Below are positions 2,112 to 43,661 of a DNA stretch of 64,000 nucleotides, one piece after another. How positions within the stretch are numbered: the first letter of the stretch is position 1; each line of letters begins with the position of its first letter. The translations under genes were made by a program, and so were the position numbers. The stretch is from Candidatus Glassbacteria bacterium (lineage in GTDB: Bacteria > Gemmatimonadota > Glassbacteria > GWA2-58-10): NCBI GenBank assembly GCA_019456185.1, contig VRUH01000004.1, positions 11,131 to 75,130 on the forward strand. The letters are read 5' to 3'. The notes below the pieces were generated by a model. The model saw only the letters and a list, made by a program, of their open reading frames with translations, did no database searches and was not told where the DNA came from.

Positions 2112-3648
2112 CGTTTGCGGCAAGCAGCGAAGAATTTTCCATCATTATCCTCAGCAGCGCGATTACGTCACCAATGCTCCAGACACCATCGTCGTCAATA
2201 TCGTACGACTCCTCACCCGGATTGCGCAAGCCTTTCAGCAGCAGCGACAGGGCGTCGGCGACGTTGAACCGGCCATCGTTGTTGAAATCATAGAGCGACT
2301 CTGGCCCTGCGCCCACCTCGAACGCACCGATATCCGGCCCGTCACCCGCGGGGCGCAGGTTTTCGTTGATATCCTCGATCCTGATCGAGTCCAGCCGCCC
2401 GAGCAGCCAGCCGGCGCTGTCGAGACTGGCGACCATGGCGCGCACCGTGTCCATCGGCGCGGCCGCATCCACCGCCGCGCTGGTATCCGACGGCACGAAG
2501 CTGGTGTCCGGGACCGAGACGAACGAGGGGTCGGCATAGCGGGTATGCTTATCGTTGCCGCTGTTACTACGCCAGTTGCCCAACGAGTATCCCAGCCGGT
2601 CGCTGGTGGTGACGATATTGTTGCTGCTGTCGATTCCCCAGAACAGGTTGTAGTCGCTGATCATGGTGCTGGAATAATCGGACCACATCTGCAGCACGGG
2701 CTCGAACCCGCCGGAGACCAGGATGTTGTTGACTATCACCGTGCTTTTGCTGGTGGACTGAATATTGATTACAGCGCGTCCACCGGACTTGAAATGGACC
2801 GTGTTGTGCATGATCAGCGCGCGCCTGCTGGTATATCTCTGATCATCCGTGTCCGCATAATACGTGAATCCTCCGGCGAAGTTGTTGTAAATCAGGTTAT
2901 TGCGGCAGATAATATCCTGGACGTGGGTCATGTTGATCCCGGCCCCGCCGCCGGCCCCGTTGTCGTGGATGATATTGCGCTCGACAATGCCGAAGTTCAG
3001 CACGCCGTCATCACCTGGCTCGGACATCAGCTCCGGGTCGCCGTTGAGATGGATCCCGTTGCCCCGGTTATGGTGGACATGGTTGCCGCGGATGATAAAC
3101 CGGTTGCCGCTGTTGGAATGGTAAATCCCGTGTTCGTCCCTGGCGCCGTAACTCTCGTTGTTCTCGAACAGAACATCGTCGGCGAACCCGGTGAACAGCC
3201 CCCACTTGTAGTTATTGGCGAATACGCAGTTGCGCACGGTGATATGGTCGCAGCGGATCAGGCTCAGCCCGGCGCGGCTGGAACGGCGGAACGTGAGGCC
3301 GTCAACGATAACGTGCGAGCTGTGGTCCAGACGCAGGTTGTCCCTGTTGTCCCGGTTGCTGGTGTCAATCACGGCGTTCAGGCTCTCGCCCATGAGCACG
3401 ATCGGCGCCTCGGCGGTACCATCCAGTTCCACGAGCGGTCCGCCGGTGTACTCACCCTCGCGGACGAATAAGGTGTCTCCCGCATCCAGACAGCCCAGCG
3501 CCGCCTCGAGCGTGGCGAACTCCGCTCCGGCCCCGCAGGCTGAGTTATCATCTCCGCCGGCGGACAGATAGATCGTTTTGGCCGGCGCCGGCAGCGCGGA
3601 CAGGCACAGGACGAGTGTGATTTTAAGCATGCTGGAATGAAACAGCAT
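2092..3648 (-). CDS. Tandem paralog of the beta-helix/dockerin-like secreted protein
   Basis: Same architecture and about 55% identity by eye to 540-2111 (RGNHVHHNRGNGIHLNGDPE identical; C-terminal YDFNNDGRFNVADALSLL / YDIDDDGVWSIGDVIALL). Start at ATG 3648 is preceded by GGGAGG and gives signal peptide MLFHSSMLKITLVLCLSALPAPA. Confidence 0.8.
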   Translation of the reverse strand: MLFHSSMLKITLVLCLSALPAPAKTIYLSAGGDDNSACGAGAEFATLEAALGCLDAGDTLFVREGEYTGGPLVELDGTAEAPIVLMGESLNAVIDTSNRDNRDNLRLDHSSHVIVDGLTFRRSSRAGLSLIRCDHITVRNCVFANNYKWGLFTGFADDVLFENNESYGARDEHGIYHSNSGNRFIIRGNHVHHNRGNGIHLNGDPELMSEPGDDGVLNFGIVERNIIHDNGAGGGAGINMTHVQDIICRNNLIYNNFAGGFTYYADTDDQRYTSRRALIMHNTVHFKSGGRAVINIQSTSKSTVIVNNILVSGGFEPVLQMWSDYSSTMISDYNLFWGIDSSNNIVTTSDRLGYSLGNWRSNSGNDKHTRYADPSFVSVPDTSFVPSDTSAAVDAAAPMDTVRAMVASLDSAGWLLGRLDSIRIEDINENLRPAGDGPDIGAFEVGAGPESLYDFNNDGRFNVADALSLLLKGLRNPGEESYDIDDDGVWSIGDVIALLRIMMENSSLLAANDDAYSL

Positions 3649-11311: not shown

Positions 11312-14300
11312 TTAGTTGATGACGTAGAACTTACCAGTGTGAGTTTCTCCCCTCTCGTCCGTCACGTGGAAGAAGTACAAGCCGCTGGCCACAGTCTGGC
11401 CGAAACGGTTCCGCAGGTTCCAGGCTTCTGTCCCGCCGTGGTTGTCCCAACCCGTGAACTCACGCGGGTCGCCAGCGATACTCAGACGGTCAAAGTCATC
11501 GTAGTTACCCCAGCCGTGGCGGTTGGCGCCGATATGGTTGAGCACGTTGACCAGGTGGCCGCCCAGTGAATAAATCCGAATGGTGCAGCGCGCGGGCAGG
11601 TTGACAAACTCGATCCGCCGCTGGTCGGGTGACAGATCGAGCGCGGAGGAAGCCATGTACGGATTCGGCACCACCATCACCTTGCTCAGGTCGGCGTCGT
11701 TCGGATCAAAAGTCATCGGCTTAATGGTGAACTTCCATTTGTCACCGGGCATCAGCACGTCGGCGCCCTGGATGAATGTGTTGTCATCCCACGAGCCCAA
11801 CGCGCTGCGCAGCACCATCACAGCGCTGCCCGGCATCGTAATCGGAGCGCCGGACAGGTGGATAATGTGGCCGGCGACCCACAGGGCGCAGTCCTCGGTG
11901 TTGCCCGCCGGCAGTGATTCCACCAGCAAGGTCGAACGGTCCGACTGCGGAGCATAAGACCTCGGGCCCCAGCCCACGTTGGTTTCGCTCTTCAGCACGG
12001 ACGGGTCCACTCCAACAGGAACGAAACCCCAGCCCACGTCGTCGATATACGGGCTGAACGGAATGCTGACGCCATGGGTGCGGTCGGTTACGCTGACAGT
12101 TACGTTGCCACCCGAGCTGCTCCAGCTGATCTCGTAGGCGGCGTTCCGAATGTAGGCCTGATAGTAACCATTCTCGGAATAATGGGAAGCCCCGCTGGCG
12201 GCCAGGCTTTTGTTGCCCAGAGCAACGGTGGCGCCGGTGTAGCCGCCCGGATCGATCTGAACCTGTAAACGCCGGCCTTCGTTTAATTGCCGGCGGCCGG
12301 TGTATGTCAAGGCCGACACAGCCCAGGACACGCCATCCGCACTCATGTTCCCGGAATAAGCTAAGGTAAAAAGGTGCGAGCCTCGATTCCTGGTACGAAC
12401 GTCGACACGAAACGGATCGGTCACCGCGTTACCGCTGGCATCGGCAAACACCACGGAGCGTCTGCCGTTCTGAAAACCCATGGTCTCCATTTTGTCGGTA
12501 GCCTGGAGATAGAACACCTCTTCCGAGGTGATCCGCTCACTATTCACCGCATCCCATGACACATTGGTCAGGAATCTCGGGATAAAGGCCGGATCCTCTG
12601 TCAGCAGGGTTCCGTCACCGGCCAGGGCGACAGTCCCCCCTGCGGTCGGCGTGGCACTGTATCCGGAGGGCGGGACGTATTCATAACCGACCAGTTCCGC
12701 CGCTTTGAAGCTACTGGCATCGCTGCGGGGCTGGACCGTGTACAACTGCGCGCCGGGTCTGTTCCACAACTTACCGCTGGCGGGATCGGGCAGACTGAAG
12801 TAGGCGTCCTCACCCGGATCGTAGTTGTAATCGTAAGGAACGAGCGCATACCAGATGCGCATGCCGTTGTTCATCCGGAACAGCGGGTTGTCACTGCCAC
12901 GCGTGTCGATAAAATGGAACGCCAGGTCGCCGCCGCCGATGCTGCCTTCCCAGATCAGCTCGGAATGCGAGTCGCTGGGACCGACAAACGAGCGATACAG
13001 GCGGTAACCCTCGAAATCGTACTCCCGGTACAGCCCACTGGGATCGAGCGAGGGGTTATCCTGCAGGAAGCCATAATACGCATCGGGCGTATTGATGTTG
13101 ACGTCGCTCCAAGTGATGGTCACCTGTTTCGCGCCGGGGATAATCGTCAGTGGCGGCGGAGCCGGTGTTTCAGGCAGTATGAAGCCGCCGGCAGAGACGA
13201 TCTCGGCCACGTCATTGTAGGCCAGCACCGTGCTCAACTGATCCTGCACATCGGGATTGTCCAGATTGGGAATATCCGATGGCGGGAAAGTGAACGGCGG
13301 GTTCTTGGGCTGCACCCACGAATACACCGCGTCCAGGCTGAAGCTGTCGCGCGGTGCGAAGTCATGGTACTCGCCCCAGAAGTTGTAGGAGTTGTAGGCG
13401 TTGCGCGTACCCCACCACCACTGGTCGTAACGCGGCTCTTCCGGCAGAGGCACGCCGGGCCAGCCGTACACCGGACCGCCGGTCCAGGGATTTACGTAGC
13501 CGGGATAGAACGGAGCGGTGGGATCGTAGCGGCCGTTGCCGTAACGGTAGGCCCTACCCGTCGGATAACCGCCCTCGAGCACTTCCTCGGGCTGCATCAG
13601 GCCGTACTCTGTCGACCAGCCATGGGCGGAGCTGTTGGAGAACCGGATTTCCTCGCCCTTCCAAACGGGTTTACGCAGCATCATCATCGACACCATCGCC
13701 GGATGCCCGGTGAAGCTGCCCTCGATGCCGTCCCGGTCCGCTACGACAATGATTTCGCGCGGGAAGTAATATGCCCACGCTTCATCGCGGCCGCCGATCA
13801 GGAAGCCGTTGCCGTAGTTATAATTCAACTGCATACCGATCCAGACCTGGCCGTTAGGCGTGGAGGCGATCTGTGCCGTTATGTCCGGATTGCCGTTCCA
13901 CTTGTTGTACTCGCTCATGTTACGGAAGAACACATGGGCGTAAACCATGTTGTTGCTTTCCGCGAAGTTGAGGAAATGGAAGCGCCATTCGATCGAACCG
14001 CCCATAGCTTGGCTTTGGTTGAAACAGTCGCCATTGAAGGTAACGATAGTTTCAGCGCCGTGGAAGATCGGGGCGCCGCCGGTGGAGCGGCCTTCACGGA
14101 ACTCGGCGGGCCAGTCGGCGATGTCGCCGGGATCGGAGGTGGTATAGACCCGGCTCTGGGGTAGCCGTCTCGCGGCGTCTTCCATATCCTCACCGGCTGC
14201 TTGCAGAGATGTCAGCAGATCGAGAGCTTCCAGCGAGCAGAGCATGCCCGGGAAGCGTCCGGCCCTGGAAAGGTTGGCCAACGTGTCGTTAGCCACACCG

Positions 14301-14557
14301 TCGCCGGTGCCGTCTCGAGCGACACATAATCCCCAGTTCCAGCGACCTGGCTTGTAGATGTTACCCGAACCGCGCGGGAATTGGGTAGGCGTTCCACCGC
14401 GCATCGGTCCGCCGTAGCTCGTAGACACCGTTAAGCCGACGTTGTTGCCCTGGGCCTGGGTACTCTGCTTCCATTCTGCATTCGCAGTGGAAACGAATAG
14501 AACCAGCAGGGTCACAACCGCCAGCTTGATCGGAATAATGAGATATTTATGAAGCAT
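11312..14557 (-). CDS. Large (1081 aa) secreted protein with C-terminal T9SS sorting domain (CTD); function unknown, FN3-like segments
   Basis: AGGAGA SD and signal peptide MLHKYLIIPIKLAVVTLLVLFVSTANA. The C-terminus ...VMVVPNPYMASS...CTIRIYSLGGHLVNVL...WNLRNRFGQTVASGLYFFHVTDERGETHTGKFYVIN matches the Por_Secre_tail / FlgD-Ig-like CTD pattern. Positioned between the TBDR and PorV genes. Confidence 0.65.
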   Translation of the reverse strand: MLHKYLIIPIKLAVVTLLVLFVSTANAEWKQSTQAQGNNVGLTVSTSYGGPMRGGTPTQFPRGSGNIYKPGRWNWGLCVARDGTGDGVANDTLANLSRAGRFPGMLCSLEALDLLTSLQAAGEDMEDAARRLPQSRVYTTSDPGDIADWPAEFREGRSTGGAPIFHGAETIVTFNGDCFNQSQAMGGSIEWRFHFLNFAESNNMVYAHVFFRNMSEYNKWNGNPDITAQIASTPNGQVWIGMQLNYNYGNGFLIGGRDEAWAYYFPREIIVVADRDGIEGSFTGHPAMVSMMMLRKPVWKGEEIRFSNSSAHGWSTEYGLMQPEEVLEGGYPTGRAYRYGNGRYDPTAPFYPGYVNPWTGGPVYGWPGVPLPEEPRYDQWWWGTRNAYNSYNFWGEYHDFAPRDSFSLDAVYSWVQPKNPPFTFPPSDIPNLDNPDVQDQLSTVLAYNDVAEIVSAGGFILPETPAPPPLTIIPGAKQVTITWSDVNINTPDAYYGFLQDNPSLDPSGLYREYDFEGYRLYRSFVGPSDSHSELIWEGSIGGGDLAFHFIDTRGSDNPLFRMNNGMRIWYALVPYDYNYDPGEDAYFSLPDPASGKLWNRPGAQLYTVQPRSDASSFKAAELVGYEYVPPSGYSATPTAGGTVALAGDGTLLTEDPAFIPRFLTNVSWDAVNSERITSEEVFYLQATDKMETMGFQNGRRSVVFADASGNAVTDPFRVDVRTRNRGSHLFTLAYSGNMSADGVSWAVSALTYTGRRQLNEGRRLQVQIDPGGYTGATVALGNKSLAASGASHYSENGYYQAYIRNAAYEISWSSSGGNVTVSVTDRTHGVSIPFSPYIDDVGWGFVPVGVDPSVLKSETNVGWGPRSYAPQSDRSTLLVESLPAGNTEDCALWVAGHIIHLSGAPITMPGSAVMVLRSALGSWDDNTFIQGADVLMPGDKWKFTIKPMTFDPNDADLSKVMVVPNPYMASSALDLSPDQRRIEFVNLPARCTIRIYSLGGHLVNVLNHIGANRHGWGNYDDFDRLSIAGDPREFTGWDNHGGTEAWNLRNRFGQTVASGLYFFHVTDERGETHTGKFYVIN

Positions 14558-14616: not shown

Positions 14617-17600
14617 TTAGAAAGTAAACTCGGCGCCGAAACGGATCTGCCTGGCCAAGCCATAGGCGCCCTTGTCCATCGTGGACATCATCACCGAATG
14701 GGCGATGTTGCCCTTGGCCTGCTCTTCAAGCGAAAGTACGCCGTCCTGGTTGAAATCTGCATTGAACCAGGTTTTGGTTTCCCGGCTCGCGTTGTCGTCC
14801 CACTCCATCACCACTCCGCCGCCGGCGCGCCTGTAATAGGACTCGAAGTGCAGGCCCGACGGGTATGCTGTCGGATACTTCTTGCTGAACGTGTTAAAGA
14901 TTTCGCTGAAGAGGTTGATCCGATAGGCTCTGCCCAGGCGGATCTGCTTGGTGAAACGCAGGTCCAGGTTATAGTCCCAGCGCCCGCGGAAGTAGTTGAC
15001 GCCACCGATCGGACGCCCGTTGCGGCGGGTCAGCCACGAGACGTTCTCGTCCGCGGCCATCCAGTAGGTGGAACCGGAGTTGACGATCCTGTCGTAAGCA
15101 GGCGCCCCGCTTTGCAGGGTGAACAGCGCAAAGATGCGGATGTCCCTCAGGACCGTATTGTAGATCGTCCCGGACTTGAAGTCTTCCGGGAAGAGGTAGT
15201 TGAGGGTGGCGGTCACCTTGTGGGTCACGTCACCGTTGATCGGCCTCAGCTCGTCGGGCGGAACGAAGACCGCGCCGGTTGAGGGATCGAGGAAGACGTC
15301 AAACTCACCGGTGGTGGCGTAATCACTACCGGTGGTGCGGGAGAACTGCATGGTGTACATCAGGTTGTAAGCGAAATTGTTGCTGAAGCGCTTACGCATG
15401 GTAAGGTCCATGCCCTTGATGTTACCACTGTCCCTGTTGGTGAAACCCGTGGTCCAGTCGCGAATCGGGCGTTCCTCGTGCCACTGGTAGTAGTCGCGGA
15501 AGAATTCCTTGCGAGCCACGTTGCCGATAACGTCGCGATAGTAACCCACCACGTCCATCACCATGTCATCGCTGATCAGATAGCTCACGCCGCCCTCGAA
15601 CGAGTCCGTGCGGCTGTATTCCAGACCGCCGGGGTTGCTGCCGCTGAAGATGTAGCTCATGCTGGGCAGCTGGGAGAACACGCCGTAGCTGAAACGCATC
15701 TGACTCTTGTCGGTAACCGGGAAGCCGACATCGAAACGAGGCGACCACTCGTCGATAACGTTGGCGAAATATCTCTCGCCCCAGTCGTCGCCGCTGCGGA
15801 ATCCCCAGTTGTCTACCGGATCGAACCTGTCAAAGCGCAGGCCGTAATTGAAGATGAAGTCGCCGAGATCGGTACGGTTCTGAAGGTAAAGAGCCAGTAT
15901 CGTCGGCTCGTAGTTGAACTCGTTATCTAAATCTCTGCGGAACCTCATGTTATGCAGCTCGTACTTCTGGTTCTCGAAGTCCGAGAACTGCAGGCCCAGC
16001 TTGGCGCGGTTGTAACGGTTAATCTGGAAATCGATATCGACCTTGTAGTTGTTCTGCCACTCGCGCTGGTAGAAGTAGCTGAGCCAGTAGAGGTCGTTAC
16101 CGGTAATCAGCCGGTAAGGATACTCCAGGTCCCAGTTACGGTGCCATGGACCGTCGCCGTCGGGATAATAGATCTTGCCTAAGTCGGAGCCCTGCAGCGG
16201 CATGTTCATCTCGGGGAAGGTCTCGATCTCGAAGGGGATGTCGTGCATTGACCAGCCCATGAACGTGGTGTTCTCGCTGCGGACGTAGCCATCGCGCGGG
16301 CTCCCGCTCGAAATATCCTGGGTCCTGAACCTGGTGTAACGGAATATCAGCGATGCGCTCCGGTCTGCGCTGCGGTAGAAGTCCCAGTCGCCGCCCAGCA
16401 GCAGGTTGCTTGTGCGGGTACGCCGGGCGTAGCCCTGCGGGACCACCAGCATCGTATCCGACTCGTTCTCCCAGGCCCTGGCCGGCAGGGTGGATTGAGT
16501 AATAACGCCATCGGTAAAGTAATTACCCTGGCTGCGGGGGATGCTGTTCTGGTTGCGGCTGTAGTTGATCGAGCCCAGCAGCTTCATACCCTGGAGCGGG
16601 TAGTAAGTAATCTTGCTGCTGGCCAGGCTCCTGTCGCCCCAGTTTTCCGGGACACGCACGGGGTTGCCCGGATTGAACAGCGCTGCGCTGTTGCCGGTCT
16701 TGCCGGCGTAGAAGTCGCGCCCTGCCTGGAGGTCTTCCAGGCTGAAAGCTGGGGTCTGAATGCCGAAAACCGGGTCGTTACGGACCGCGGCGTTCAGCCG
16801 CGCCACGAAATCTTCGTTGATGCCGCGGAAGCCCTCGTCGGCGTGAGTCGGCTGACGGTCGGCCATTCCCTGAATTTCACCCGAACCGTGGATGTACAGG
16901 TTGGGGATGAAGGAAAGCGGTCCGCCGATCGAGACGGTCATCTGGTTATAGCCGTAATCGGAGGTGCGGGGGTTGGTTTCATCGGTGGTGTACCTGATGT
17001 TACCGTGCCAGTCCGCGCCACCTTCCTTGGTTACGATATTGATCACACCGGACTGGGCGTTGCCGTACTCGGCCTGGAACCCGCCGGTGATGATGTCCAC
17101 CTGCTCGACCGCAGCCGCGGAGAACTCCAGAGGAGACGCATCCTCGGCGCGGGAACCGAGCTCCTGCTCCCACACCCAGCCGAGACCGCTTCTGAACGGG
17201 TCGGCGGTGTAGTTGCGCACGGTCATGCCGTCGATGATCATCACTTCTTCACCCAGGCGGCCGCCGCGGATACGCAGGCCGCGGCCAAGGGCGTCGGGAC
17301 CGCCGGTCTGCACGCCGGCCTCGAGAATCATCATGTCCTCGAGCGTGGTGGCGGGTATTTCGGCGATTTTCTCCGCGGTCATCCTCTGTTTACTGACCGT
17401 GTTATCACGCGGCATCAGCACATCGGATTCACCCTCGATAGTGATTCCCTCGAGCTGGACCACGGTGGAACTCATGTTTGAATTAACAGTCGTGGTCTGG
17501 CCGGCGAGCAGCAGTTGATCACCAATCGTCACCTTCTGATAACCGGTGTATGTGAAGGTGATATCGCGCCGTCCAGGCGGTACGTTCAGGATAAAAAAGT

Positions 17601-17802
17601 AACCGTCCGCATTGGTTACGTTTCCCAGCCTGGTGCCTTCGATCACGACCTGCGCACCCTGCAGGGGTCCGCCCGTATCGGCGTCCCGGACTGTGCCCTC
17701 AACCTTGGAGGTATTGAGCTGAGCCATTGCAGGCAAGGCCCAGATCAATGCAGAGAGCAGCAGTATGCCGGACCTTCCGAAAAGACGTTTGTTAATCGAC
17801 AT
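14617..17802 (-). CDS. TonB-dependent outer-membrane receptor, SusC/RagA-like (CarbopepD_reg domain + plug + barrel)
   Basis: ATG 17802 with AAGGAGG SD. Signal peptide MSINKRLFGRSGILLLSALIWALPAMAQ. N-terminal carboxypeptidase-regulatory-like beta-sandwich (GTVRDADTGGPLQGAQVVIEG...), then plug region (DIITGGFQAEYGNAQSGVINIVTKEG). C-terminal ...AEFTF. Confidence 0.75.
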   Translation of the reverse strand: MSINKRLFGRSGILLLSALIWALPAMAQLNTSKVEGTVRDADTGGPLQGAQVVIEGTRLGNVTNADGYFFILNVPPGRRDITFTYTGYQKVTIGDQLLLAGQTTTVNSNMSSTVVQLEGITIEGESDVLMPRDNTVSKQRMTAEKIAEIPATTLEDMMILEAGVQTGGPDALGRGLRIRGGRLGEEVMIIDGMTVRNYTADPFRSGLGWVWEQELGSRAEDASPLEFSAAAVEQVDIITGGFQAEYGNAQSGVINIVTKEGGADWHGNIRYTTDETNPRTSDYGYNQMTVSIGGPLSFIPNLYIHGSGEIQGMADRQPTHADEGFRGINEDFVARLNAAVRNDPVFGIQTPAFSLEDLQAGRDFYAGKTGNSAALFNPGNPVRVPENWGDRSLASSKITYYPLQGMKLLGSINYSRNQNSIPRSQGNYFTDGVITQSTLPARAWENESDTMLVVPQGYARRTRTSNLLLGGDWDFYRSADRSASLIFRYTRFRTQDISSGSPRDGYVRSENTTFMGWSMHDIPFEIETFPEMNMPLQGSDLGKIYYPDGDGPWHRNWDLEYPYRLITGNDLYWLSYFYQREWQNNYKVDIDFQINRYNRAKLGLQFSDFENQKYELHNMRFRRDLDNEFNYEPTILALYLQNRTDLGDFIFNYGLRFDRFDPVDNWGFRSGDDWGERYFANVIDEWSPRFDVGFPVTDKSQMRFSYGVFSQLPSMSYIFSGSNPGGLEYSRTDSFEGGVSYLISDDMVMDVVGYYRDVIGNVARKEFFRDYYQWHEERPIRDWTTGFTNRDSGNIKGMDLTMRKRFSNNFAYNLMYTMQFSRTTGSDYATTGEFDVFLDPSTGAVFVPPDELRPINGDVTHKVTATLNYLFPEDFKSGTIYNTVLRDIRIFALFTLQSGAPAYDRIVNSGSTYWMAADENVSWLTRRNGRPIGGVNYFRGRWDYNLDLRFTKQIRLGRAYRINLFSEIFNTFSKKYPTAYPSGLHFESYYRRAGGGVVMEWDDNASRETKTWFNADFNQDGVLSLEEQAKGNIAHSVMMSTMDKGAYGLARQIRFGAEFTF

Positions 17803-18061
17803 AGATCCTCCTTCAGGATCCTTCTGGAACAATTTGCGAATGTAAATGCTTCCTGTTGCCTTCTTTGCGCCTGACCGAAATTCCTGAAAACCGCTCATCT
17901 CTTTCAAGCCACTCATCAGTGCAAGTGCTTCATTCGCCCTCCTTGGAATTGAGTTGTGGTTTCGCTGGAACATTCGGTACGAAAGATGAGTTCCAGCATT
18001 TTGTCGAAATTTAAACCGAGCAGAGCAATTACTTTCCGTTGCCCCTCTTCGGAAATAAAAG

Positions 18062-18090
18062 TTGACGAGATTGCGAATAGTTTATATATT
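18062..18090 (+). promoter_or_regulatory. Near-consensus sigma70-type promoter (TTGACG-N17-TATATT) oriented away from the TBDR operon
   Basis: TTGACG at 18062-18067, 17-nt spacer, TATATT at 18085-18090. No protein-coding gene starts downstream on the plus strand. Confidence 0.45.
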
Positions 18091-18096
18091 AACGTA

Positions 18097-18175
18097 GCAA
18101 TCCCTTGGGATTGCGCTTGTGGCCCATGCCGGATGAACCTTGGCGGAACTGACGGCATGGGCCCTTTTATATTAT
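18097..18175 (+). ncRNA. Candidate small RNA (about 78 nt; a second repeat copy could extend it to about 170 nt)
   Basis: Predicted TSS about 7 nt after the -10. A 5' hairpin GCAATC-ccttgg-GATTGC, then an 11-bp perfect stem GGCCCATGCCG/CGGCATGGGCC followed by CTTTTATATT. A second copy of the terminator-like hairpin plus TTTCTTATTCGTT sits at 18211-18265. Confidence 0.3.
18100..18164. repeat. 65-bp direct repeat copy 1 (hairpin-containing)
   Basis: The 40-nt core CCATGCCGGATGAACCTTGGCGGAACTGACGGCATGGGC is identical to copy 2; the flanks carry 4 mismatches. Confidence 0.9.
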
Positions 18176-18189
18176 TCCGTTCAAACAAA

Positions 18190-18253
18190 AATCCCCTGGA
18201 TTGCGCTCGTGGTCCATGCCGGATGAACCTTGGCGGAACTGACGGCATGGGCA
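18190..18253. repeat. 65-bp direct repeat copy 2 (period 90 bp)
   Basis: See copy 1. The stem holds 10 bp including one G-U wobble. Confidence 0.9.
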
Positions 18254-18376
18254 TTTCTTATTCGTTGTCAGAAATTTGCTCTGAGCAAAAACTTGTTTTT
18301 CATCAATGAATTATGATCTTTTTGTCCTTTTTTATAATCCAGATTACCAGCTTTATATGGTGAATCCCGGATGAAA

Positions 18377-19696
18377 TCAGGCTGGAACTCCTTCCAGCCT
18401 GGATGTTTTGCTCGTTGATTTTCTCGTTCTGGCTACCGGCTGGGATCCGTCGTCGTGATCGCCGAGCATGTGCTGCAGGACGAGGGCGCGCGCGCCGCTG
18501 AATGTAGGATTCTGCAAGGAGCACGGTACAATCAGGTCCGGCAGGTGCTCCATCGGGTACGGCGCCCTGCTGCGAAGCTGGTCCAGCAGCTCGGGATAAA
18601 TCAGTTTCCACGCCTTTACGAGGTGGCCGCACAGAATGATCCGCTCCGGGTCGAGTCCGTTGTTGATATTGGCCAGGCCCGCTCCCAGCCATTTCGCGGT
18701 TTCCCGCAAGGCCTTGCGCGCATCGGAATCTCCCTCGACAGCCATATCGATCAGTCTGATCGCCTGGCTGCCGAAATCGTCTTCCCTCGGCTGACCGGAA
18801 AGCTCACAATAACGGTCGACAATACCCTCGAACGACGCCTTGTCCTCCCAGGTAGTGCCTTTGGAAGGTGTTTCGTAATCCCCGTCGATCTCCACAATCC
18901 CCGAGTAGAACCTACCGTCCATGAACCGGGCTCCGTTATAGAGCTTCCCGTGGATTACCGTACCGATGCCCACACCCTCGCAGACGAGAACGTAAACGAA
19001 ATTACTCAGCCCCCTCGCCTCATCGGCAAACCAAAACTCGGCTACCGCACCTGCCTTGGCGTTATTTTCAACAAAGACAGGGCACTCGAAATGGCGCTCG
19101 ACCGGTTTGCGGCAGGAAACGTTTTTCCAGCCCAGACGGTTGTTCCAGAAGATCATGCCGGTCTCCGAATTAAGCACCGCAGCGACAATCACGCTTACGC
19201 CGGCCAGGGGCTGCGTAAATTCATCGACCATCTCCGCAAGTCTGGCGGCGCAGAGATCGAAGAATTTGTCGGCGTCGTTGGGGAAAGTTTCGATTTGTTG
19301 TTGAGAAAGGACTTCGCCTGAAAGGTCGCAGACCGACAGGGTAGCATGGCGAATGGTTGTATCAATCGATCCGTAAATCCGGTAACTCGGGCTGACCCTC
19401 AGGTTGACCGGCTTGCGGCCCAGCGCGTTGGCGTCGTCCTGGCTCGCCTCGTAGATCGCACCCTCGCCGATAAGCTCGCTGGTGATCTTGGAAACAGTGC
19501 TCTGGTTCAGCCCTGTGCTCCTCGACAGTCTGACCCGGGAGATCGGACCGTGTGTGATGATTGTATTCAATACCGCCGAGCGGTTGAGTGCCCGGATTTT
19601 CTTGTGGGCATGCGGCATTAATTTTTTTACCCGTATAGTTCCTGAGATACGGTATGGAGGGAATGACATCTTGTCGTTCCAAATACCAAACGACAA
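18377..19696 (-). CDS. ROK-family transcriptional regulator (NagC/XylR/Mlc-like) with N-terminal HTH
   Basis: HTH LNRSAVLNTIITHGPISRVRLSRSTGLNQSTVSKI, then the ROK sugar-kinase-like fold. Start uncertain: TTG 19696, ATG 19669 or ATG 19618. Confidence 0.7.
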   Translation of the reverse strand: MSFGIWNDKMSFPPYRISGTIRVKKLMPHAHKKIRALNRSAVLNTIITHGPISRVRLSRSTGLNQSTVSKITSELIGEGAIYEASQDDANALGRKPVNLRVSPSYRIYGSIDTTIRHATLSVCDLSGEVLSQQQIETFPNDADKFFDLCAARLAEMVDEFTQPLAGVSVIVAAVLNSETGMIFWNNRLGWKNVSCRKPVERHFECPVFVENNAKAGAVAEFWFADEARGLSNFVYVLVCEGVGIGTVIHGKLYNGARFMDGRFYSGIVEIDGDYETPSKGTTWEDKASFEGIVDRYCELSGQPREDDFGSQAIRLIDMAVEGDSDARKALRETAKWLGAGLANINNGLDPERIILCGHLVKAWKLIYPELLDQLRSRAPYPMEHLPDLIVPCSLQNPTFSGARALVLQHMLGDHDDGSQPVARTRKSTSKTSRLEGVPA

Positions 19697-20103
19697 AACG
19701 CTGTACTCATATCTGTTTAGCCGCTAACTGTTGAGAATCCCGGTCAAGTAATTTACATGGGAAATGAGTGGATAGGTATCTGCAAAAATTTTCTTTCGGA
19801 AAGAATATTTGTATTATATTAGCATATTCCGCAATCGTTGTCAAGAAAGAAGTCCAAAAAAACAGAGCAAAACCGTGAATCGTGTTCGCAACTGTGATCC
19901 CGTTATCTAAAGTACAAGCAAGGGTGTCCGGGATGAAAAAACGCCTGTTGGCACAACACCGGTTTCTGGAAAGAAATCTTTTTTTTCCATCAAACTAAAT
20001 ATTAACACAATCCATCGAAAAAAGATTATCCGGGCAATCTGGTTTCAACTAGATTATTTTCTGGAAACTTGAGAACAGCAGAATAATCCTTGTAGTTTAA
20101 CCC

Positions 20104-43602: not shown

Positions 43603-43639
43603 AACGCAAACAGCCCTGTCGATCAGGGCTGTTTGCGTT
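43603..43639. terminator. Bidirectional terminator hairpin between convergent genes (16-bp perfect stem AACGCAAACAGCCCTG / 5-nt loop)
   Basis: Perfect inverted repeat located between the ends of genes 42517-43433 (+) and 43662-45449 (-). Confidence 0.6.
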
Positions 43640-43661
43640 AGATCCGCAGGCGGAACTGATT

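Follow-up and report, generated by a model that had tools for sequence, protein, structure and literature searches.

What occupies the spacer between a ROK-family regulator gene and the gene for a TonB-dependent receptor (TBDR) in the genome of a Candidatus Glassbacteria bacterium? The locus lies in a 64-kb stretch of contig VRUH01000004.1 (assembly GCA_019456185.1), the whole of which is referred to below as the window. The plus strand of this region carries neither flanking gene, the ROK gene running from 19618 to 18377 and the TBDR gene from 17802 to 14617, both on the minus strand. A first-pass annotation, made from the letters of the window, had described a promoter, a structured RNA and an intrinsic terminator on the plus strand of the spacer and had proposed a small RNA (sRNA) that regulates the receptor operon. 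In our analysis the feature proved to be real and conserved. Our best reading is a predicted sRNA gene from a new family of an already familiar general type, which is confined to one small clade among the uncultured Gemmatimonadota and attached to a module for glycan uptake. Comparison of sequences from related loci further shows the predicted gene to be an integral part of this ROK-regulator/TBDR module. Transcription of the plus strand, the ends of the RNA and its regulatory role are what we infer from these sequences.

The element occurs in two forms. An A unit consists of a -35/-10 pair, an intact 5' hairpin, a long hairpin and four to five T's; a B unit is promoter-less and its 5' hairpin is degenerate. 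In the window, the A unit is preceded by a sigma-70-type promoter, TTGACG-N17-TATATT at 18062-18090 (+), which is oriented opposite to the TBDR operon. It had been called near-consensus and does match at 10 of 12 positions, but taken alone it is no better than chance (one such promoter found versus 0.9 expected in shuffled sequences). The AT-rich stretch AAATAAAAG (18053-18061, +), which adjoins the -35 box on its upstream side, resembles an UP element in sequence, and AAATAAA(T/A)G stands ahead of the -35 box in most A units of our alignment.

The promoter would drive a transcript of about 75–80 nt corresponding to the A unit (18096-18176, +; covariance-model match of 100.5 bits). From the geometry of promoter and terminator, transcription is predicted to start near 18096-18097 and to end within the T-tract. 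Such an RNA would begin with a 5'-terminal hairpin of seven pairs (GCAATCC-CTTG-GGATTGC, 18097-18114, +) and pass through a short variable linker into a long GC-rich hairpin, whose perfect 11-bp stem GGCCCATGCCG/CGGCATGGGCC (18121-18131 and 18153-18163, +) encloses a loop of 21 nt. The 3' half of this loop, CTTGGCGGAACTGA (18139-18152, +), is nearly invariant and a candidate seed or protein-recognition site. Directly after the stem follows the T-tract CTTTTATATTATT (18164-18176, +), and the corresponding U-tract would end the transcript as an intrinsic terminator. All these parts lie where the first-pass annotation had placed them. The terminator is absent from the list of a simple scanner because its 21-nt loop exceeds the 3–8-nt limit of that program.

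The evidence from this single window is weak. A 185-nt region covering the element folds with a z-score of -2.5 on the plus strand and of -3.9 on the minus strand. The significance of the element therefore comes from its conservation across lineages. For comparison, contigs encoding ROK proteins 75–85% identical to that of the window were fetched, and a degenerate hairpin pattern was scanned over the JGI metagenomes and 185,579 species-representative genomes. Eight lineages or paralogues proved to carry the element, with ROK proteins 75–100% identical to the window's; the window protein itself is 100% identical to an NCBI 'Candidatus Glassbacteria' protein from a metagenome-assembled genome (MAG). 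Two units each are present in the window, in L023/L024/L027 and in L033, three in L016 and five in L002 (MAG GCA_054474455.1), while L006, L004/L005/L025 and L032 have a single unit. At every locus, the element lies in the spacer bounded by the ROK stop codon and the TBDR start codon and is antisense to both genes. The gap between the sRNA terminator and the ROK stop codon measures about 22–25 nt in L004 and L006 and 50–120 nt elsewhere; in the window, the stop codon lies about 110 nt past the B unit.

A -35/-10 pair with a spacing of 16–17 nt precedes every A unit across the eight lineages, except for the decayed unit L002d, and in each of these promoters the end of the -10 box is 4–7 nt upstream of the conserved ACGCAGCAA. 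Promoters of other lineages read TTGACA-N17-TACAAT, TTGACA-N17-TACATT, TTGACA-N17-CATTAT, TTGACA-N17-CACTAT and TTGACT-N17-TACCAT; weaker ones are TCGACC-N17-TAAGCT, TCGACC-N17-TAGGCT, TTACTT-N16-TATACT and GTTGTC-N17-TACGCT. Four to five T's are found at the end of the stem or a few nucleotides beyond it in all A (full) units. The 5' hairpin is intact in nearly all of them, in some with U·G pairs; its loop sequence is free (CCAG, GUAA, CUUG), and its stem is longer in L006 and L004 (GCAGCAA/UUGCUGC). The order that had been read from the window, namely promoter, structured RNA and then intrinsic terminator, is kept at the syntenic position in all eight lineages. This conservation at the same spot, with one to five tandem copies, makes a dedicated riboregulator the most likely explanation.

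The window contains a direct repeat of 55 nt (18108-18162 and 18198-18252) that is 96% identical. The spacing of 90 bp given in the first-pass annotation is correct, but the exactly identical core comprises 39 nt (18124-18162 = 18214-18252) and not 40; zero matches of this kind are expected by chance. The second copy is a B unit (18187-18266, +) with no -35/-10 pair upstream. It has a degenerate 5' hairpin at 18190-18202, a long hairpin of 10 bp including one U·G pair at 18211-18253 and a T-rich tail at 18254-18266 (all +). B units trail an A unit by about 72–90 nt in five lineages (the window, L023, L016, L002 and L033), and they keep the hairpin via compensatory changes. The earlier description as a second terminator copy falls short for the unit, which is more than a terminator; the last B unit is devoid of a T-tract in four of the five lineages. 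A B unit would be transcribed by read-through only, giving a longer RNA that contains the loop twice. Both window copies (W1 and W2) carry the lineage-specific loop variant AUGAACC, and this indicates homogenisation between them, as judged from the sequences.

In L002, an A+B dimer was duplicated together with its promoter, and one copy is without a -10 box. This is unit d (L002 2448-2518, -), in which TTGACA is kept and the -10 box is replaced by a run of C, CCCCCCCCTCCC; it represents a copy in decay or else an error of the assembly. The tandem arrays, to judge from these sequences, are subject to expansion and decay. A side observation concerns L033, where the end of the Logan contig (1785-1807) carries AGATGTGTATAAGAGACAG, which we take to be Nextera transposase adapter sequence; this contig end is adapter contamination in the assembly.

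Contig JBMXTN010000068.1 (GCA_054474335.1) harbors two complete ROK-sRNA-TBDR modules, L006 and L032, which are arranged in series with a MerR-family gene between them. Either module has an A unit of its own. The two sRNAs differ more from each other than they do from their orthologues in other lineages, and the L032 RNA is closer to the RNA of L023 than to that of its neighbour L006. The existence of two modules with their own sRNA variants, one of them nearer to L023, argues that regulator, RNA and receptor were inherited and duplicated as a whole.

We next turn to the structure itself, using an alignment of 17 distinct units on which the pairs were counted. In the long stem, 93.6% of the cells are paired, compared with 33–48% in controls in which the partner was slid by one to three columns, and RNAalifold finds this stem independently. 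The covariation analysis that the first-pass annotation had called for detected compensatory double changes in 4 of the 11 long-stem pairs. In four units a GC pair has become AU; the others are AU to GC and, twice, CG to UA. As many double-change cells as observed arose in 2 of 500 column shuffles, and the covariation score was reached in 3 of 500, a control that ignores relatedness; since the lineages are closely related, the covariation amounts to few independent events, although their direction is consistent throughout. The compensatory changes seen in these sequences thus provide modest support for the long stem. Intact A units contain 10 G·U pairs on the plus strand versus two A·C pairs (which would be G·U on the minus strand), and T-tracts and promoters are found on the plus strand only. 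Together, these asymmetries argue that the fold is under constraint in a plus-strand RNA, rather than at the level of the DNA or of either mRNA, ROK or TBDR.

Conservation is also asymmetric within the long loop. Its 5' half (18134-18138) is variable, while the 3' half CUUGGCGGAAYUGA is almost invariant in the 17 units; G52, G53, G55, G56, A57 and A58 do not vary at all, and their flanks are near-invariant. This pattern suggests that the loop core acts as a seed. According to structure predictions, the core may be bounded by tandem G·A pairs together with a weak helix of 3 bp, with UUGGC at the apex. A longer inner helix of 5–6 bp was considered and dropped: RNAfold predicts it in L002, L016 and L023, it is broken in the window, and only the weak 3-bp helix is left in the consensus.

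It could be argued that the element is not an RNA gene at all, but a palindromic protein-binding site or a set of stem-loops that stabilise the minus-strand ROK mRNA, similar to repetitive extragenic palindromic (REP) sequences and bacterial interspersed mosaic elements (BIMEs), with the plus-strand promoter and T-tract being coincidental. The minus strand folds at least equally well (see the z-scores above), symmetric changes in a palindrome can mimic compensation, and the copy number is variable, as in REP arrays. The element also shares with REP/BIME sequences the form of GC-rich, imperfect intergenic palindromes. However, it is not dispersed. In the 64-kb window, no further copy was detected by a pattern search allowing three mismatches, by short-word BLAST or by the covariance model, so that both copies are at this locus. 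The scan of the species representatives returned one genuine match, a Gemmatimonadales MAG with three copies within 310 bp at a syntenic position, and the genuine matches in JGI metagenomes were all syntenic. Six other genome matches and five other metagenome matches consist of GC-rich sequence without a flanking hairpin and look random. A dispersed repeat of the REP/BIME type, which the first-pass annotation had named as an outcome that would speak against it, was rejected on these grounds. Furthermore, unlike REP/BIME sequences, the element has its own conserved promoter and T-tract, the former at a fixed distance in all A units bar L002d, and the G·U to A·C ratio of 10:2 favors the plus strand. 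Its loop is more conserved than the stem, and far more so than would be expected of the spacer of an operator. We therefore regard a non-RNA origin of the feature as very improbable.

The hairpin could alternatively encode a tiny peptide. An open reading frame (ORF) of eight codons, ATG CCG GAT GAA CCT TGG CGG AAC TGA, begins within the 5' arm of the long stem, has its stop codon at the loop's 3' end and would yield MPDEPWRN (MPEDSWRN elsewhere). It is found in W1, W2, L002a, L002c, L002e, L016a, L016b and, with a GTG start, L023a. Several of the differences are third-position or conservative (D/E swaps, AAC/AAT), and in L002e the stop codon is changed from TGA to TAA and so is still a stop. 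The start codon is lost, however, in L002b, which has a perfect-consensus promoter, and in L002d, L016c and L023b; in L006 the frame is shifted by a deletion of one nucleotide, and L004 encodes a different peptide. There is no Shine-Dalgarno (SD) sequence upstream, although the organism uses strong ones. In addition, the ATG lies inside the 11-bp GC stem and its changes are compensated in the opposite arm, which points to constraint on the structure. On the basis of the four lost start codons and the L006 frameshift, the ORF was rejected, and we consider a peptide hardly credible. None of the ORFs running across the repeats is conserved among lineages, in agreement with the earlier view that they merely echo the duplication.

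The proposed RNA does not belong to a described family. A search of the window with Rfam 15 gave no match at the gathering score, and at E <= 10 the region 17800-18420 gave only two matches, both implausible and both off the element; nothing was found on the element at E <= 1 in six related loci. These negative results cover FopS, GibS, OmrA-B, PrrF, CsrB/Rsm, riboswitches and ribozymes, and they answer the question of the first-pass annotation whether an Rfam family matches the element. Hammerhead-like CUGA/GAA motifs were also considered; they are not conserved, and the Rfam result for them is negative as well. Our literature search found no paper on sRNAs in Glassbacteria or Gemmatimonadota. 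Glassbacteria are named in the abstract of an article comparing Gemmatimonadota lineages (PMC11596202).

How might such an RNA act? We think it probable, judging from the sequence comparisons, that the sRNA is a riboregulator of the ROK/TBDR module that works through base pairing of its exposed, conserved loop. Its likeliest target would be an unlinked or not-yet-sampled mRNA in trans, in the manner of the sRNAs FopS, OmrA/B and PrrF, whose targets are mRNAs for outer-membrane receptors. A target in trans appears most likely because an RNA that acts purely in cis as an antisense transcript needs no invariant loop, and because the asymmetric conservation of the loop is seed-like. Pairing in cis with the 3' untranslated region (UTR) of the convergent ROK mRNA, or with a read-through transcript from ROK, could be an additional or alternative activity. 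As regards the originally proposed control of the receptor operon, synteny and the duplication of whole modules speak for it by inference, but neither the TBDR leader nor the ROK start gave a significant result in the pairing tests.

Several results weigh against our interpretation. Pairing of the loop with the TBDR leader is no better than with shuffled leaders in the window, L023 and L004, and in no lineage does pairing with the start region of ROK reach significance. A duplex scan of the entire window found nothing at a translation start, and the best non-self sites are inside coding regions. Across all loci, perfect complementarity was seen solely with the antisense strand of the element itself. 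The loop core is perhaps partly structured, and recognition by a protein would then fit better than a seed. Distant ROK-TBDR loci, with ROK proteins 49–54% identical, keep the synteny and contain neither the element nor any antisense promoter-terminator pair; the element is therefore not essential to the module. To judge from the sequences of these loci, the RNA is a recent addition in one clade. The chance-level promoter match in the window and the small number of independent covariation events belong on the same side of the balance.

Individual target candidates were examined further. For the loop alone, the comparison with dinucleotide-shuffled TBDR leaders is marginal in L016 and L002 (4/100 and 9/100), and a 28-nt stretch comprising loop and stem pairs with the 5' end of the leader at -35 kcal/mol in these two lineages. 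The leader as a conserved target was rejected, as the signal is marginal in L016 and L002 only and absent in the window, L023 and L004. As an observation in its own right, the start of the L016/L002 leader, GCCGUCCUGAUUCAYCGCCGGAGUUCCCGG (L016 ~3020-3050), is complementary over about 26 bp to the loop and upper stem of the sRNA. It resembles an inverted and expanded copy of the sRNA hairpin, a match not seen in the lineage of the window. At the ROK start, the window linker CUUGUGG matches CCACAAG in ROK codons 4–6 (7+5 bp); this candidate was dismissed, as synonymous differences abolish the pairing elsewhere. Pairing of the linker with TBDR codons 5–7 or with the conserved CAUUCGCAAA was likewise rejected, there being no co-variation. 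Finally, an 11-nt perfect complement of the loop core (CAGUUCCGCC...) occurs at 43649-43659 (-), within the region 43636-43660. It belongs to the 3' UTR that follows a peptidase S15 gene and directly adjoins the terminator hairpin on its upstream side. About 0.3 such 11-nt matches are expected by chance in the window, and the site is compatible with chance.

The unit converges on ROK and ends 20–120 nt past the ROK stop codon, which makes a cis-antisense RNA or transcriptional insulator, with a local role and no target in trans, a serious rival, albeit one we hold to be distinctly less probable than a riboregulator that acts through its conserved loop. The RNA could pair perfectly with the ROK 3' UTR or with a ROK-to-TBDR read-through RNA and lead to its processing or decay. 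Alternatively, polymerase collision together with the hairpins could keep transcription of the regulator gene from running on into the receptor operon, which is tightly controlled. In line with this, the unit is always convergent with ROK, at the short distances given above, and the arrangement was copied intact when the module was duplicated. A simple terminator scan of the spacer found no canonical minus-strand terminator for ROK. The perfect complementarity of the element's own antisense strand and the lack of a trans target in the local search also fit a local role. However, the invariance of the loop would be needless for a purely cis-acting RNA, yet UGGNGGAA is invariant in 17 units. The G·U pairs indicate selection on the fold of a plus-strand RNA and not on mere complementarity, and the distant relatives do without the element. 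An overlap of the two transcripts would be allowed by the geometry.

Beside the ROK stop codon we noticed an inverted repeat of 10–11 bp, CAGGCTGGAA/TTCCAGCCTG at 18377-18402, which covers the last ROK codons and the stop codon. It is followed on the plus strand by TGTTTTGCT and was flagged as terminator-like. This repeat could serve as a stop for read-through from the sRNA gene. It is not kept as a hairpin in L016 or L002.

A further possibility is that the RNA is a protein decoy of the CsrB/RsmZ type, in which GGA hairpin motifs (CCGGA, GGAGGA, CGGAA) titrate a translational repressor such as CsrA. These motifs resemble the GGA-rich, hairpin-embedded ribosome-binding site of TBDR, and tandem copies would multiply the sites. 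Rsm/Csr sRNA families are often multicopy, and the arrays described here have one to five units. Both invariant blocks of the loop contain GGA (C39 C40 G41 G42 A43 and G55 G56 A57 A58), the loop could form a structured rod in which tandem G·A pairs lead up to an apical loop of 5 nt, and the TBDR initiation region is an invariant hairpin with AAGGA in its loop, overlapping the SD sequence. The repeated hairpins, conserved GGA loops, multiple or tandem copies and intrinsic terminators are shared with CsrB and RsmX/RsmY/RsmZ. However, the GGA motifs are far fewer than in those RNAs, with two to three per ~80 nt where chance alone would give about 1.2. Half of the first GGA falls within the stem, the GGA of the 5' hairpin is not conserved (GGGGUU in L002a, GGGUU in L016), and the Rfam models for Csr/Rsm did not match. 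This explanation is weaker than that of a cis-antisense RNA or insulator, and we consider it unlikely.

A related idea, to which we would give an equally slim chance, is that the hairpins are more than terminators, namely regulated attenuators or decoys within the uptake module that are recognised by a protein or ligand. The RNA would then be a self-contained switch coupling the expression of repressor and receptor, in a phylum from which riboregulation is not known. A protein such as a CsrA-like translational repressor, or a small ligand, would recognise the invariant motif of internal and apical loop, GA...UGGNGGAA...GA; the repressor would also bind the ribosome-binding site of TBDR at its invariant GGA-containing hairpin. 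One outcome of binding would be that the repressor is drawn away from the receptor mRNA. The other would be a loss of termination, whereupon transcription from the promoter would continue into the ROK repressor gene in antisense orientation.

The genes that surround the predicted sRNA gene are consistent with a role in glycan uptake. The ROK gene (18377-19618, -; Pfam ROK, E = 3.3e-35) is convergent with it. The TBDR gene (14617-17802, -), which encodes CarboxypepD_reg and Plug domains, is divergent from the sRNA promoter and is the first gene of an operon resembling a polysaccharide utilization locus (PUL) that also holds hydrolases and an outer-membrane protein. Directly downstream of it, at 11312-14557 (-), lies a gene for a protein of 1081 aa without a Pfam match, whose position is kept in L023 and L006/L032; the protein may be a SusD-like partner of unknown family. 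On the other side, an AT-rich palindrome, ATTCTTTCCGAAAGAAT, is conserved in the divergent intergenic region between ROK and a BNR/Sortilin gene (19786-19810, about 175–187 nt upstream of the ROK start). It was compared upstream of ROK in L016, L002, L006 and L032; the L006 version is AATATTCTTGCAGAAAGAATATT, and that of L032, AATATTCCGAATATT, is about 400 nt upstream of ROK. By its sequence, the palindrome is a candidate ROK operator. An operator shared by the whole module was rejected, as the palindrome was not found at the sRNA or TBDR promoters.

The upstream region and leader of TBDR (17803-18061, -) are part of the module according to the alignment and the distant loci. The leader has several features of its own. 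A strong SD site, AAGGAGGG (17938-17945, -), precedes a tiny upstream ORF (uORF), which in the window reads ATG AAG CAC TTG CAC TGA (17934-17917, -). We compared this region in the window, L002, L016, L006, L004, L023, L032, L009 and L011. The uORF has five codons in L023 and L032 (MKQVF and MKHGF) and encodes MKQR in L009; a bare start-stop, ATG TAG, is found in L002, L016, L006 and L004. A mini-uORF or start-stop about 130 nt upstream of the receptor gene suggests, from its sequence, translational or attenuation control. Upstream of the uORF, a covarying hairpin, GCTGGAAC...GTTCCAGC (17964-17997, -), reads GCCGGAG...CTCCGGC elsewhere. Its sequence varies while its pairing is kept, and the conserved CUGAUUCAC stands ahead of it in most lineages. 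At the TBDR start itself, about 48 nt (within 17790-17850, -) are identical in six lineages and nearly so in L032. This sequence can form a hairpin in the translation initiation region, GGAUCC-UGAAGGA-GGAUCU (17803-17821), that would partly sequester the SD sequence before the AUG, and distant relatives keep it with a compensatory change (AGAUCC...GGAUCU). In sequence and fold, it resembles a binding site for a translational regulator.

The closest functional analogue, by analogy of genomic context, would be FopS and GibS of Bacteroides thetaiotaomicron, short multicopy sRNAs with a Rho-independent terminator that regulate PULs (PMC11697453). FopS represses translation of the mRNA for a SusC-type TonB-dependent receptor and has been deposited in Rfam (PMC11697453). 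Like these RNAs, the present element is associated with a PUL-like locus, and it lies directly upstream of a TBDR gene with CarboxypepD_reg and Plug domains. It is without a sequence or structure match to FopS/GibS in Rfam 15, occurs in a different phylum and has a different type of promoter, and none of the pairings with the receptor mRNA was significant here. The seed of FopS is a single-stranded 5' end, whereas the conserved stretch described here is in the loop of the terminator hairpin, and the copies of FopS are scattered over the genome, while our units are in tandem and bound to one locus.

Other comparisons are instructive as well. OmrA/OmrB of E. coli and PrrF1/PrrF2 of Pseudomonas are adjacent pairs of near-identical sRNAs that regulate mRNAs of TonB-dependent receptors or iron uptake. 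They share with the present element the link to receptors and the tandem copies homogenised within a genome (here W1/W2). Unlike our B units, however, each of their copies has a promoter; there is no homology detectable by Rfam, and neither pair is set between a regulator gene and the associated receptor operon. PMC11697453 also mentions cis-antisense sRNAs of the DonS type in Bacteroides. Such RNAs overlap the 5' part of a susC-like gene and are proposed to repress the locus. The RNA predicted here would likewise be an antisense small RNA within a glycan-utilisation locus beside a susC-like gene, but it is directed away from the receptor and toward the 3' end of the regulator gene, so that any overlap would concern the ROK 3' UTR.

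The element is among the few candidate sRNAs outside the Bacteroidota that are physically built into a glycan-uptake (PUL-like) module, and it has been inherited, duplicated and amplified along with the ROK regulator and the TBDR. With an RNA of about 75 nt, an invariant loop of 14 nt and natural copy-number variants, it represents a compact system, and the covariance model built here can be used for annotating the element in MAGs. If the RNA does control the receptor, then RNA-level control of outer-membrane glycan transporters, whose Bacteroides counterpart is that by FopS and GibS, would have arisen independently in another phylum.

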